The notes beneath the pieces were generated by a model. The model searched no databases and was not told where the DNA came from. It was given only the letters and a program-made list of their open reading frames with translations. From the UHGV virus genome UHGV-0004901: a stretch of 38,194 nt of DNA, one strand, 5' to 3'. The translations under genes and the position numbers were made by a program. This document shows positions 6,628-38,194 of this stretch, one piece after another; position 1 is the stretch's first letter, and every line of letters begins with the position of its first letter. This stretch comes from a virus.

Positions 6628-7467
6628 ATGAGCAGACATGCAACAGATTGGGCCTGGGAGACAGATCCAGGTAGCTCATCATTAAAGCTCATACTGCTCT
6701 CGATGGCTGACAGAGCCGATGAATATAACCTCTGCTACCCCAGCATAGAACGCCTCGTTAAAGACACTTGCCTGAATAAAAAAACCGTGCAGGCCGGGCT
6801 TATATCGCTCATGAAAATGGGGCTTATTTCAGATACCGGAGAGAGAAAGGGAGCGACAAAAAGAGTGCGGGTTTTCTCTCTTAATATAACCAAAAACGGG
6901 AACATTAAAGGCAACCGAGAGGGGGGCAATGAACCCGAAAACGGTAATGTTACCGAAAACGGGAATATACCCAAAAACGGGATGTTGAATGATCCCAAAA
7001 ACGGGATGTTGAATGATCCCAAAAACGGGATGTTGAATGATCCCAAAAACGGGATCCAGAACCAGTCATATAACCAGTCATTTAACCAAGAGAGGGAGAG
7101 CAGGACAAAAAACGGGGATTCTGTGCATCATGACCCCGGCGCAAACAACGCCGTGATGAATAACTTTGTTCCTCCTGGTGGGCCAGGGCAATTAGGCAAA
7201 TTTGTCATGCATGAACAATGGCAGCCATCAGATGACTTTCTTCGGAAAAGCTCATTGCAGGGGATCTACCTGGACAGTCTGCCAACGGCACAGGAACTTG
7301 CAGAGTTCAGAATTTACTGGATGGCTGAGGGTAAGGCATACCATCAGGCACAGTGGGAGCAGAAGCTGGCAAGGCGGCTGCAGATTAGCAGACAGAAGCA
7401 ATCAACATTACCTGATAACAACGTTCCGCACTGGAACAGCCCTGAAGCATGGGAGGATTTCTTGTGA
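6628..7467 (+). CDS. Replication initiator, lambda O-like (N-terminal winged-helix domain) with internal iterons
   Basis: N-terminal HTH-like domain; internal PKNGMLND repeats encoded by DNA iterons; followed by and overlapping a lambda P homolog. Confidence 0.75.
   Translation: MSRHATDWAWETDPGSSSLKLILLSMADRADEYNLCYPSIERLVKDTCLNKKTVQAGLISLMKMGLISDTGERKGATKRVRVFSLNITKNGNIKGNREGGNEPENGNVTENGNIPKNGMLNDPKNGMLNDPKNGMLNDPKNGIQNQSYNQSFNQERESRTKNGDSVHHDPGANNAVMNNFVPPGGPGQLGKFVMHEQWQPSDDFLRKSSLQGIYLDSLPTAQELAEFRIYWMAEGKAYHQAQWEQKLARRLQISRQKQSTLPDNNVPHWNSPEAWEDFL
6890..7060. repeat. Iteron array (putative origin of replication): 7 copies of CC(C/G)AAAACGG(G/T)A at 18-24 bp spacing, including 3 perfect 24-bp tandem copies
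   Basis: AAAACGG cores at 6893, 6938, 6956, 6974, 6998, 7022, 7046; followed by a second short direct repeat AACCAGTCAT(A/T)TAACCA (7059..7090). Confidence 0.7.
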
Positions 7468-14709: not shown

Positions 14710-14786
14710 TGGCGTGGCATGCAGGATTCGAACCTGCGACCAACCGCTTAGAAGGCGGTTGCTCTGTCCAACTGAGCTAATGCCAC
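14710..14786 (-). tRNA. tRNA-Arg, anticodon UCU (decodes AGA), phage-encoded
   Basis: Folded by hand: 7-bp acceptor stem GUGGCAU/AUGCCAC, D-arm GCUC..GAGC, anticodon stem ACCGC/GCGGU with loop CUUCUAA, T-arm GCAGG-UUCGAAU-CCUGC, discriminator G and encoded CCA. Confidence 0.85.
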
Positions 14787-34984: not shown

Positions 34985-37900
34985 ATGACGGTCTCAACCG
35001 AAGTTGACCACAACGAATACACCGGTAACGGAGTTACGACATCATTTCCGTATACCTTCCGTATTTTCAAAAAATCCGACCTGGTTGTTCAGGTGTCTGA
35101 TCTGAACGGGAACGTAACAGAATTGGTGCTTGATACCGGTTATAAGGTAACTGGAGCGGGCACTTATAGTGGCGGTGAAGTGGTTCTTCCGTCGCCGCTT
35201 GCTGCTGGCTGGCGAATTACGATAGAGCGTGTGCTTGATGTGGTGCAGGAGACTGATCTTCGCAATCAGGGAAAATTTTTCCCCGAAGTTCATGAGGATG
35301 CATTCGACTACCTGACGATGCTGATCCAGCGATGTTTTGGGTGGTTCAGACGTGCATTGATGAAGCCCTCGCTGCTTGCAAAATATTACGATGCAAAGCA
35401 AAACAAAATTTCTAACCTTGCAGATCCATCACTTGAGCAGGACGCTGTAAATAATCGTTCAATGCGTAAGTATGTGGATGCTGCAATTGCTGGTGTTGTC
35501 GGTGGTTTCGGATGGTTTATCCAGTATGGTGCTGGAGCTGTATACAGAACGTTCCAGGATAAGATGCGTGATACAGTAAGTGTGAAAGATTATGCTGCTG
35601 TTGGAGATGGTATAACTGATGATACGAATTCTTTTATTCTGGCTCCTGAAAATGCTTATGTTCCACCTGGAGTATATCTTGTTGATACGTTGAAAGTAGA
35701 TGTAAGCAAAATGACAGGGGAAGGGATGATTCTTTCCAAAACTGGTCATCTACTTTCTCTTCGTAATAATATCAGTAATACATTGGTGCAACGCCATTTA
35801 ATGGAAGCATTTATGGGTTTTGGTGAGTCCCAAGTTTTTCCAAATGGTGAGGCTACAAGTCAAGGGTGTGCTTATGCGAATTATAATGGTAAAAAATTAT
35901 TTATTTTACAAACGGTTGTTGGCAGTGCTGAAGGTAGTGGAAACTTCAACTCTAAAGTAACATCAGCTGGTGACTTCATAACCGGAATTGAATATGAAAT
36001 AGTAAGTATAGGTTCAACTGATTTTACAACTATAGGGGCTGCTGAAAATAATATTGGTGTACGATTTACGGCGAATGGTCCAGGGGTTGGTACAGGAACA
36101 GCAGCTGCTTTAGAGAAGCGCAGGCTGGTTGAATACTCGTTTTCTGATGATGGTTCAGTAGTGCAAAATACTACTTACACTGCACCAATATTAAATAACC
36201 ATCAGGGAATATCTACGATAGTTATTGATGATGACCTTTTTATTTATACCCAAATGGTTACCCAGCCTACATATCGAGGAAATGATGGAGGAAAAGGTTA
36301 TTCAAAATTAATTTGGAAAGGGAGCAGCACATCTGAATCTGATGTGATTACTTATCAGCTTTTTGGATATTCTGGTTCTGGTCATCCTTATCAGAATTAT
36401 AATTCAGCAACCCCGTGTGTATCTTCAGATGGAAGGTATGTTGTTCTTGTTGCAACTGATAGCACAGCAGATGATGATGCCTGGTATGTATTTGTTTACA
36501 GCAGGATACACGTAGAATCCCTTGACAATAGTTTGGAAGCAAGACCATTGTATTATTTCAGGATTCCACATCCGCAGCGCGGAACTGATACTCATGTTAT
36601 TCAAGATGTTGCCAGTGATGGTAAGTACATCTATATATTAAGGGGATATACACATCCGTTCATGTTGCATATTATTCAGAAGTTTGATTATTCTGGTAAT
36701 ATTCTTGCTGAATTTTCATTTGAGGGGGCTCGTTCTCTTTATGGATACAAAAATCTTATGGATAATCCAAAGTATGGGACCCCCCATTCATTTGAACCTG
36801 AAGGTATAGACATGTATGAAGGAGACCTTATTATTCTAACTATGGATAATTGGGATTCTGGAGCTTCTATTATAACTTACAAAGGAAAGAATTATTCCGC
36901 TTTTTCTACTGCTTCTGGTATTGCTCCGGATGATCCCGATGGATTTAGAATGTGGGCGATAACAAATAAAGTTAGTGGTGGGGAATACTCGAATGATAAA
37001 AAGTACAGCGATGGAGTGTATTCGAAACGAGGAAAACAGATATTTCTTATTTCACAATCGCGTGGGGTTGCTAATGAACTCCCATTGAATTCCGCCTTGA
37101 CAACTCGTGTTAATAACTCACCACTTTCTTCTATAAGTTCTGCTTTTGATGTTTCCTTTAAATTAGGAGAGAACTGGATATTGGGGGGGTATTCAGAAAA
37201 TACTTCAGAATATAAAAAAGCCATTCAGTATGCTAGTAATGGTGCTTTTCGTGTTCATGATTCCCGCAGAGAATCTGACAATAATAAGTACTGGTCTATA
37301 CGTGGTGGATATGATGTAACACCGCAGATACAAGAAGTTGTTGAATTTAGGTGTCGTGGTACTGTAGAAAATGGGGCTGGCTGGAATGCTTATGGTTCTA
37401 ATGACTATCGCTTACCAAACAGGTTTCGTATGTTCCCTGGCGGGAGCTTTGGCGGTACTCAAGTTCTTGTCGAGATAGCTAATCCAGTTAATGATAATCC
37501 TTATTTTGCTCCCACAGGGCAGATAGGAACAGTTAATAATGGTACAACGACAGCATACTGGAATAACATATATAGCAAGAATGCTGTCACTGTTGTTTCA
37601 GATGTTAATTACAAAGATGAATTCTCGGATATACCGACTGAACTTATTGAAGCCGTGGGTAGTGTAAAATTTCAAATGTGGAAGATGAAGGATGAAATAT
37701 TACGAAAAGGAAGTGAACATGCCAGATATCATTTTGGAGTTGTAGCGCAGCAAGTTAAGGATGCAATTACAAAAGCTGGTCTTGATTGGAAGAAGTATGG
37801 TCTTATTACGTATGAAGAAACCAGTGTTTTGGTAAGAGAAAACGAATCTGGTGATTTTTATCCTATTGATATTGAGTCTTGTCCAATTCCAGTTAATGAA

Positions 37901-38059
37901 TTTGGGATTATTAAATTAATAGAAGGTGCAGATGAAATTAAAGAAGATAAACATGGAAATTTGGTATTGACAAGATCTATTTACATGATGCGTATGGATG
38001 AATTTGAAATAATAAGGATGGCATATCAAGAAAAGAAAATAGCGGATCTAATAAGTTAA
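34985..38059 (+). CDS. Tail fibre/tailspike protein: T7 gp17-like N-terminal virion-attachment domain, AT-rich distal receptor-binding region, C-terminal chaperone-like segment
   Basis: N-terminus ...TGNGVTTSFPYTFRIFKKSDLVVQV...RITIERVLDVVQETDLRNQGKFFP resembles the T7 tail fibre N-terminal domain; GC drops from about 50% to about 36% after roughly 35.6 kb; C-terminal ...SDVNYKDEF...YHFGVVAQQVKD... resembles intramolecular chaperone (S74-like) domains. Confidence 0.8.
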   Translation: MTVSTEVDHNEYTGNGVTTSFPYTFRIFKKSDLVVQVSDLNGNVTELVLDTGYKVTGAGTYSGGEVVLPSPLAAGWRITIERVLDVVQETDLRNQGKFFPEVHEDAFDYLTMLIQRCFGWFRRALMKPSLLAKYYDAKQNKISNLADPSLEQDAVNNRSMRKYVDAAIAGVVGGFGWFIQYGAGAVYRTFQDKMRDTVSVKDYAAVGDGITDDTNSFILAPENAYVPPGVYLVDTLKVDVSKMTGEGMILSKTGHLLSLRNNISNTLVQRHLMEAFMGFGESQVFPNGEATSQGCAYANYNGKKLFILQTVVGSAEGSGNFNSKVTSAGDFITGIEYEIVSIGSTDFTTIGAAENNIGVRFTANGPGVGTGTAAALEKRRLVEYSFSDDGSVVQNTTYTAPILNNHQGISTIVIDDDLFIYTQMVTQPTYRGNDGGKGYSKLIWKGSSTSESDVITYQLFGYSGSGHPYQNYNSATPCVSSDGRYVVLVATDSTADDDAWYVFVYSRIHVESLDNSLEARPLYYFRIPHPQRGTDTHVIQDVASDGKYIYILRGYTHPFMLHIIQKFDYSGNILAEFSFEGARSLYGYKNLMDNPKYGTPHSFEPEGIDMYEGDLIILTMDNWDSGASIITYKGKNYSAFSTASGIAPDDPDGFRMWAITNKVSGGEYSNDKKYSDGVYSKRGKQIFLISQSRGVANELPLNSALTTRVNNSPLSSISSAFDVSFKLGENWILGGYSENTSEYKKAIQYASNGAFRVHDSRRESDNNKYWSIRGGYDVTPQIQEVVEFRCRGTVENGAGWNAYGSNDYRLPNRFRMFPGGSFGGTQVLVEIANPVNDNPYFAPTGQIGTVNNGTTTAYWNNIYSKNAVTVVSDVNYKDEFSDIPTELIEAVGSVKFQMWKMKDEILRKGSEHARYHFGVVAQQVKDAITKAGLDWKKYGLITYEETSVLVRENESGDFYPIDIESCPIPVNEFGIIKLIEGADEIKEDKHGNLVLTRSIYMMRMDEFEIIRMAYQEKKIADLIS

Positions 38060-38078
38060 TGCTATAATAAATAATATG

Positions 38079-38115
38079 TAATGGCCGCGCATTACGGCCA
38101 TTATTATAATTATAT
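38079..38115 (+). terminator. Rho-independent terminator after the tail fibre gene
   Basis: TAATGGCCG-CGCATTA-CGGCCATTA hairpin followed by a T/A-rich run. Confidence 0.6.
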
Positions 38116-38117
38116 CA

Positions 38118-38194
38118 CTGTGCTGCTGTGCTGCTGTGCTGCTGTGCTGCTGTGCTGCTGTGCTGCTGTGCTGCTGTGCTGCTGTGCTGCTGTG
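38118..38194. repeat. Tandem octanucleotide repeat (CTGTGCTG)n, at least 9.6 copies, truncated by the window end
   Basis: Direct reading; perfect 8-bp periodicity to the last base of the window. Confidence 0.9.

Follow-up and report, generated by a model that had tools for sequence, protein, structure and literature searches.

The right edge of a 38,194-nucleotide viral genome (UHGV virus genome UHGV-0004901; the whole stretch, at its full length, is referred to below as the window) consists of a perfect octanucleotide tandem repeat, and the question raised by this locus is whether the repeat is a slipped-strand contingency locus, as was proposed in an earlier note on this DNA, and what a change in its copy number would alter. 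Our analyses establish that the repeat is a hypermutable VNTR within a coding sequence; it forms the 3' end of a lysogenic-conversion gene, and the prophage that carries this gene has a layout that we take to be epsilon15-like. Hence, the proposal stands in so far as the repeat is hypermutable and coding, but it does not stand as an ON/OFF switch, because no reading frame truncates the core of the encoded enzyme.

Within the window, Tandem Repeats Finder reports 9.6 copies of CTGTGCTG with a period of 8, 100% matches, no indels, and a score of 154, and the two-unit pattern of this octamer occurs 8 times in the window against an expectation of 0.00 (100 dinucleotide-preserving shuffles). The tract starts 58 nt past the stop codon of the tail fibre gene (TAA, 38057-38059) and 14 nt past the end of a G+C-rich hairpin, in full agreement with the earlier description of at least 9.6 perfect 8-bp copies running to the window end behind the tail fibre gene and its terminator; because the tract reaches the last base of the window, this copy number is a lower bound (at least 9.6). 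These first 9.6 units of the array lie inside the window, and the 260-amino acid (aa) catalytic core of the protein to which they belong is encoded past its edge; the G+C content of the tract is 62.5%, vs. 36.7% for the core gene. The coordinates of the relevant features are summarized in Table 1.

Table 1. Features of the tail fibre end of the window and of the repeat tract (n, number of repeat units).
Feature	Coordinates	Strand	Description	Basis
Tail fibre/tailspike gene	34985..38059	+	1024 aa; convergent with the acetyltransferase gene	ORF list, PDB and Pfam searches
TAG stop codon	38048..38050	-	Exit at n = 2 mod 3; annotated CDS with n = 50; window frame 0	
G+C-rich hairpin, TAATGGCCG...CGGCCATTA	38079..38103	.	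Between the convergent genes	Sequence
TAA stop codon	38110..38112	-	Exit at n = 0 mod 3; protein end ...SSTVI; annotated CDS with n = 42; window frame 1	
TGA stop codon	38115..38117	-	Exit at n = 1 mod 3; protein end ...TAAQ right after the tract; CDSs with n = 43, 52, and 16; window frame 2	
Octanucleotide VNTR	38118..38194	-	CTGTGCTG on the plus strand, CAGCACAG on the coding minus strand; encodes an (AAQQHSST)n C-terminal tail	

When the last 2.2 kb of the window was used as a query, five complete E. coli chromosomes matched the left flank at 99.8-100% identity, and in these chromosomes the tract comprises 50, 42, 43, 52, and 16 perfect copies followed by unique sequence. The tract is real DNA and not an end artefact, since it is crossed in these five complete chromosomes with a near-identical left flank. 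An IMG/VR contig (L012) with the same flank also stops within the tract, after 13 copies, and the ends of the window and of this contig inside the tract fit short-read assemblies breaking on the repeat. In another IMG/VR sequence (UViG 2585427789_000028; L015 10942-11185, minus strand), 13 + 15 perfect units are placed around a 20-nt interruption, CTGTGCTTATCACAGTGCTG, which is either a genuine interrupted allele or an assembler-made join. Arrays of at least 4 copies of the octamer also occur elsewhere (in 34 species and 3 viral contigs, all of them unrelated), in no case beside a homologue of the gene, and for this reason the array was rejected as a diagnostic of the acetyltransferase gene. 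The octamer was observed at 7, 10, and 14 copies in L042 362-417, L049 1186-1265 (Puniceicoccales MAG Gx481_bin188), and L028 1-112, respectively; L042 and L049 are two contigs of one genome in which it lies between near-identical flanks (AACATTTAATAGCTTACT.TAGCTG ... CTGTGC.AATTTTA.TAACCATGTT), and these two arrays may belong to a repeat-associated locus family of an unrelated phylum.

Followed rightwards in the complete E. coli chromosomes, the tract lies within an open reading frame. In RefSeq it forms the 3' part of a minus-strand CDS of 912-1251 nt that is annotated as "acyltransferase" or "hypothetical protein", and the annotated CDSs differ in tract length only. Translation gives an invariant 260-aa core ending in ...EKRFAGT, which is followed by (AAQQHSST)n. 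The suspicion that a unit whose length is not a multiple of three might be coding is thus confirmed, the tract being the 3' end of this acetyltransferase CDS. The consequences that had been anticipated from this are not those that are found. All three frames of CAGCACAG give the same octapeptide repeat, because 8 and 3 are coprime, and the tract is open in all six frames (three minus and three plus); since it is free of stop codons in every frame and lies 3' of the core, its copy number cannot truncate the 260-aa core. A shift of frame therefore leaves the repeated peptide as it is and changes only the choice among three stop codons. An effect on promoter spacing, the other possibility that had been raised, is contradicted by the position of the tract, which is downstream of both convergent genes, the acetyltransferase promoter region being at the other end of its gene, where it faces a holin gene.

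The exit frame tracks n mod 3 exactly, as seen in the annotated CDS ends and in a three-frame translation of the window end (Table 1). At n = 2 mod 3, translation continues through the terminator hairpin and appends 22 hydrophobic residues (DIIIIMAVMRGHYILFIIALTY), and this reading frame overlaps the final 12 nt of the tail fibre gene. At a second type of left border, that of strain PAR, the protein ends in AK, in 23 hydrophobic residues, or in 64 residues read antisense to the tail fibre gene. Natural isolates show all three exit frames, the 64-aa antisense read-through tail among them. Plus-strand ORFs that run through the tract, encoding (LLCCCAAV)n, were rejected as genes: they start after the terminator, they are antisense to the enzyme gene, and they are unannotated.

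From its sequence and its structural model, the gene product is predicted to be an O-acetyltransferase of the NeuO/OatWY kind, soluble, of the acetyl-CoA type, and with a left-handed beta-helix fold. [quoted passage not shown] The core has a match to Pfam Hexapep (E = 1.8e-4, under the curated cutoff), and its best PDB sequence match is NeuO 3JQY (E = 2.7e-18; 28% identity over 161 aa). An AlphaFold model of the monomer, based on 43 homologues, has a mean pLDDT of 85; values exceed 90 as far as about residue 257 and are mostly under 50 beyond it. The modelled core consists of short strands and has its last helix at residues 244-257. The top Foldseek matches of this model are NeuO 3JQY (E = 2.6e-10) and OatWY 2WLG (target-normalised TM-score 0.85, rmsd 2.6 A), the two enzymes that are described as the capsule-polymer-specific members of the hexapeptide-repeat family (PMC3046976). 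In NeuO, the catalytic His147 is located in a protruding loop and the conserved Trp171 is contributed by a neighbouring subunit (PMC3046976); these residues align with His163 and Trp188 of the prophage enzyme, which are invariant in 43 family members. Met134 and Arg137 of NeuO have no position-for-position conservation in the prophage enzyme.

Homologues from Aeromonas, Pantoea, Castellaniella, and metagenomes share 33-70% identity with the enzyme and are 255-292 aa in length (325 aa in one case). In 42 homologues the conservation stops at Y253-x-x-RF and is followed by 2-25 non-conserved residues, and a repeat was looked for in the tails of these 42 homologues (33-70% identity) and found in none. 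Judged by this conservation and by the model, the VNTR begins exactly at the border between the folded enzyme and its naturally variable tail (after residue 259). No sequenced phage carries the acetyltransferase gene, the best match to a phage protein being neuO of CUS-3, and a megablast search of the last 2.2 kb of the window against 50,697 phage records gave no match.

The prophage that carries this gene is located in E. coli between guaA and yfgI. Its first part comprises, in order, integrase, recombination and replication genes, terminase, portal, capsid, and a T7 gp14-like core protein, and its last part comprises the genes for the tail fibre, for the acetyltransferase (on the opposite strand), for two holins, and for a GH19 endolysin, as well as an Rz-like gene. 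The window starts at the first base after guaA and is itself a mosaic relative, at 97-99%, of this guaA-yfgI prophage. Two further features of the window were observed outside the tail fibre region. Direct repeats at 6933-7088, viz. 18-bp units (6933-6982), a 24-bp unit CCCAAAAACGGGATGTTGAATGAT in 3.6 perfect copies (6970-7055, score 172), and a 12-bp repeat (7060-7088), lie inside a DnaT-like replication gene upstream of "replication protein P", as indicated by collinearity with the prophage of strain MLI114, and they may be origin iterons inside an initiator gene, as in lambda. A tRNA-Arg gene (anticodon TCT; 14710-14786, minus strand) is situated between the terminase and portal genes and is annotated in the MLI114 copy as well.

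PDB and Pfam searches identify in the tail fibre protein a Dpo31-like N-terminal anchor and a C-terminal Peptidase_S74 intramolecular chaperone. Its identification as an endosialidase, which would point to polysialic acid, was rejected, the matches being to the S74 chaperone and the N-terminal anchor only. In each of the 11 genomes with the acetyltransferase gene, this gene and the tail fibre gene converge. A terminator scan of L005 found the hairpin on the minus strand right after the tract, and the hairpin is conserved in the PAR allele; it is probably a bidirectional intrinsic terminator that is shared by the two genes. PAR and EC0026B have a different tail fibre, of 923 aa. Past its stop codon is a stretch of about 35 nt that corresponds to the final codons of the tail fibre gene of the window type (CAAGAAAAGAAAATAGCAGATCTAATA...), and then comes the same hairpin (comparison of L006 3560-3830, from PAR, with window positions 38026-38117). 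This relic of about 35 nt in front of the same hairpin indicates that the tail fibre was swapped by recombination just upstream of the terminator/VNTR module, and the swap happened within hosts of one capsule type.

Other rearrangements are observed in the same region. In SW070919 (L001 3673-8060), an IS3-family element splits the tail fibre gene into a "head-binding protein" fragment and a 3' part, and the acetyltransferase gene beside it, with 50 units, is intact. AST205 and E100341 have lost most of the prophage and keep the tail fibre, acetyltransferase, and lysis genes. Lysis cassettes that are about 92% identical to the one described here are present in about 450 of 5426 E. coli genomes. 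In one of these, strain 04-00955 (L066 3909-5822), at the same guaA-yfgI site, the slot of the acetyltransferase gene is occupied, in the same convergent orientation, by a gene for a 637-aa AT3-SGNH (OafA-like) acyltransferase. The presence of this acyltransferase in a related prophage identifies the slot as a position for lysogenic-conversion cargo, and this prophage family appears to swap its surface-modifying cargo to match the host.

A query with the sequence beyond the tract was matched in 11 of 5426 E. coli genomes. Besides the five chromosomes described above, these comparisons concern strain PAR, which has 22 perfect copies together with its different tail fibre gene and slightly different left border, and five laboratory derivatives of EC0026B, which share one identical 15-nt remnant, CTGTGCTGCTGT-CTG, a collapsed, interrupted, and stable allele that is one base away from two perfect units. 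Copy number is thus variable among isolates, as had been surmised, with values from 16 to 52, and the tract is neither invariant nor without an associated gene. MLI114 (43 copies) and MLI121 (42 copies) come from the same study site and are identical over flanks of 8118 and 5733 nt (13.8 kb), differing in this region by copy number alone, although these numbers are taken from assemblies and a gap of one unit, such as 42 vs. 43, could be an assembly error. Alleles of 16 and 52 copies are also found in hosts that have in common a pdeF allele and a yfgH frameshift. The 90%-identity protein cluster of the enzyme has 125 members, and those that are listed are 264-365 aa in length; the values of n deduced for these listed members are 1, 6, 7, 8, 10, 14, and 16, with every exit frame represented. 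The commonest allele, of 267 aa, is found on 71 contigs and is essentially without the repeat, which indicates that the repeat is dispensable.

These results can be brought together in a model in which replication slippage would add or remove 8-bp units, each unit giving 2 2/3 residues more or less of a polar and probably disordered C-terminal tail, which would span about 43 residues with 16 units and about 139 residues with 52. Each slippage step would also rotate the exit frame, so that the tail would end with no extra residues, with VI, or with the 22-aa hydrophobic read-through tail, and the catalytic core would be made at every copy number. The expected result would be a heritable, rapidly reversible, and graded change in the activity, stability, or localisation of the enzyme, and not an ON/OFF change. 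The target of the enzyme would be the K22 ribosyl-ribitol-phosphate capsule, which is assembled in the cytoplasm and which upon acetylation would become K18, and this conversion would alter the receptor that is met by the phage's own tail fibre and by antibodies. Graded tuning of this kind is suggested because the efficiency of NeuO rises linearly with its number of heptads, though the heptads are not needed for activity, and because the occurrence in two unrelated prophages of a long non-triplet VNTR in such an enzyme beside a tailspike gene is improbable by chance. In our analysis, slippage-driven graded tuning by the tail, combined with acetylation of K22 to K18 by the enzyme, provides the best overall explanation of the locus, and we consider it moderately probable. 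Against tuning, the tail is, as read from its sequence, without basic residues, so that the polyanion-binding rationale proposed for NeuO is not directly transferable, and the presence of all exit frames in nature fits equally well with a C-terminus that is irrelevant to function.

The latter point leads to the possibility, which we regard as rather unlikely but serious, that the tract is a tolerated hypermutable microsatellite with no adaptive role, in which a proto-repeat was perfected by a 1-nt change and then expanded and contracted by slippage, and nothing past the fold matters. Such an origin is consistent with the position of the tract where homologues have variable and non-conserved tails, with the coexistence in nature of very different lengths and all exit frames, with the absence of the array from the most frequent allele, with the short allele CTGTGCTGCTGT-CTG being two perfect units but for one base, and with the independent expansion of the octamer to 4-14 copies in the 34 unrelated species. 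It is less easily reconciled with the long perfect arrays (128-416 bp) that are kept in strains from five countries (viz. Mali, Gambia, Japan, Ecuador, and China), as collapse would be expected of long arrays, or with NeuO, the only other known prophage enzyme of the family in E. coli, which has its own non-triplet VNTR of similar size, also beside a tailspike gene, whose repeat number changes activity.

An ON/OFF contingency switch acting by loss of frame or by promoter spacing, or in a weaker form by read-through tails that inactivate or destabilise the enzyme (a soft OFF), is in our estimation very unlikely. The indivisibility of the unit length by 3, the change of the C-terminus with n mod 3, and the addition of 22-23 hydrophobic residues in one exit frame, or of 64 antisense-derived residues in another at the PAR-type border, would all agree with such a switch, but the tract lies 3' of the whole catalytic domain and is stop-free in all frames, which makes truncation impossible, and it is placed downstream of both convergent genes, beside their terminator and not in a promoter; the hard ON/OFF and promoter-spacing forms are thus excluded by the gene structure. 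That the window and the IMG/VR contig both end within the tract could also raise the thought of an artefact, and the tail fibre swap that PAR and EC0026B show close to the tract, on its upstream side, or the ability of its CTG-rich strand to form imperfect hairpins (-15.6 kcal/mol per 96 nt), the thought of a role at the DNA level as a recombination hot spot at the tail fibre/cargo boundary or as a transcription barrier. Such readings are barely credible: six complete chromosomes, independent of one another, carry the tract between unique sequences, the swap junction is upstream of the conserved terminator segment and not within the tract, the folding energies of both tract strands, in which an unusually stable structure was sought, equal those of shuffled sequences (z = -0.34 and +0.54), and expression of the gene necessarily entails translation of the tract.

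For the substrate of the enzyme, the host genomes provide a candidate. Two of the carriers differ in their O antigens (O15 in MLI114, O7 in AST205), and the O antigen was rejected as the target, as it does not track the gene while the kps locus does. MLI114 and AST205 have one group 2 kps locus, with identical accessions for 2 of the 3 region 2 proteins, and its region 2 encodes a TagF-like polymerase, a CDP-ribitol synthase, and a 378-aa protein. With 99% identity as the lower limit, this region 2 is present in 19 of 5426 genomes, a set that includes every one of the 11 acetyltransferase carriers; a relative of it at 88% DNA identity is present in 113 genomes, none of which (0/113) has the acetyltransferase gene. 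The region 2 proteins of the two groups are 81.9, 98.9, and 97.1% identical, and in the kTYPr catalogue the corresponding values for K18_K22 vs. K100 are 82.13, 98.908, and 97.098 (PMC13171606). EC958, which is typed K100/KL100, has the accessions of the 88% group. As the identity values match those of the catalogue and EC958 anchors the other group as K100, the carriers have the K18_K22 locus. Public strain accessions were also tried in the kTYPr supplementary tables, and none was found there.

K18 is the acetylated form of K22, and their gene clusters are 100% identical; in a 2026 capsule-typing study the two types were genetically indistinguishable, and an acetyltransferase that is probably located outside the capsule locus was postulated (PMC13171606). 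The acetyltransferase gene described here, at guaA-yfgI, is outside kps, which adjoins yghD downstream of the pheV island. In MLI114 (L060-L064, record 815-990 kb), the K18_K22 kps locus occupies the distal end of a roughly 160-kb pheV island, on which aai-type T6SS genes, pic, CTX-M-15, TEM-1, a class 1 integron, and mer and tet(A) genes are also found; the pheV island that precedes this kps locus in AST205 measures 7 kb. Group 2 capsules are polymerised in the cytoplasm, which suits a soluble enzyme of the acetyl-CoA type. The carriers have four alleles of the neighbouring pdeF gene, and the association of gene and capsule is hence not that of one clone; it rests, however, on about four host lineages and could partly be due to shared ancestry or to the host range of the phage. 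Reference genomes are listed for K18a (GCA_977946865), K18ab (GCA_977946875), and K22 (GCA_977947955), and those of K18a and K18ab have assembled lengths of 5,068,856 and 5,069,166 bp, which are 310 bp apart (PMC13348134, Table 1). If K18a and K18ab are near-isogenic, a difference in repeat length at this locus is worth considering for the a/ab distinction.

The closest parallel to this locus is neuO of the prophage CUS-3, a "mobile contingency locus" that encodes the polysialic acid O-acetyltransferase of E. coli K1. Its 5' heptanucleotide tract has 2-93 copies, with 3-53 in 64 complete genomes, and activity rises with repeat number; at 21 units, about 7% of cells are off-length. In CUS-3 itself, neuO follows the endosialidase tailspike gene, and 19 AAGACTC units are located 160 nt past the tailspike stop codon. 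Both systems consist of a prophage cargo gene beside a tailspike gene, and the products of the two cargo genes are soluble hexapeptide-repeat O-acetyltransferases that belong to one structural subgroup, with a group 2 capsule as the substrate (here as a candidate), and in both a perfect non-triplet VNTR inside the coding sequence is translated into a polar peptide repeat, over similar ranges (3-53 copies for neuO in complete genomes, 2-52 here). They differ in that the neuO unit is of 7 bp and its tract is placed 5', two nucleotides behind the start codon, in a gene that is co-directional with the tailspike gene, whereas the unit described here is of 8 bp and its tract is placed 3', in a gene that converges on the tail fibre gene. 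In neuO, two-thirds of the copy numbers truncate the protein, which is of full length only at multiples of 3 (a true ON/OFF switch), whereas here no copy number truncates the core and only the tail length and the stop codon change. The repeated peptides are also different, AAQQHSST (without Lys or Arg) here and RLKTQDS in NeuO, as are the host prophages (presumably epsilon15-like here, P22-like for CUS-3).

Other known systems share individual characteristics with the locus. OatWY, the sialate O-acetyltransferase of Neisseria meningitidis serogroups W-135 and Y (PDB 2WLC-2WLG) and a capsule-polymer-specific left-handed-beta-helix enzyme, gives the best structural superposition with the predicted core, but it has about 20% sequence identity to it and is encoded in a chromosomal capsule locus; the literature examined on OatWY describes no coding VNTR. 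The AT3-SGNH O-antigen acyltransferases (Oac/OafA type) are likewise products of lysogenic-conversion genes, one of which has the same slot between tail fibre and holin genes in the related prophage described above, but they are integral-membrane enzymes of an unrelated fold, and a tandem repeat sought at the AT3-SGNH slot of the related prophage was not present there. The simple-sequence contingency loci of Haemophilus and Neisseria resemble the tract in that slippage-prone perfect repeats lead to heritable and reversible variation of a surface-related function, whereas in these classical loci the repeat is 5' in the ORF or in the promoter and acts ON/OFF, and here it is at the extreme 3' end. 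In E. coli tolA, repeat length alone can reportedly modulate protein function, with units that are multiples of three and not non-triplet as here (PMC3477136).

NeuO has been called unique in its enzyme family for regulation based on a repeat (PMC3046976). The repeat sequence, or a description of this locus, was not found in the searchable literature, where related topics gave work on neuO only. What is new here is a 3' repeat that varies the tail of the protein and does not switch it ON or OFF; a slippage-variable prophage capsule acetyltransferase as such is known from neuO.

This locus represents a second and independently evolved case of a (here putative) prophage capsule acetyltransferase with a long non-triplet coding repeat beside a tailspike gene. 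As the neuO repeat combines ON/OFF switching with an effect of length, and the repeat described here, at the opposite end of the protein, allows a length effect only, the locus is a natural test case for the question of whether tuning is what maintains such repeats. The tract also constitutes a high-resolution typing marker for K18_K22 lineages, although one that breaks short-read assemblies, and the gene is a concrete candidate for the K18/K22 determinant. In its boldest form, in which the gene is the missing K18 determinant and the 3' tract sets the degree of acetylation via tail length and a three-way C-terminus and is never OFF, the proposal is speculative and in our judgement unlikely. 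If it is true, lysogens would carry a heritable and rapidly reversible continuum between K22-like and K18-like surfaces, and this continuum might underlie both the distinction between K18a and K18ab and the non-stoichiometric acetylation of the capsule.
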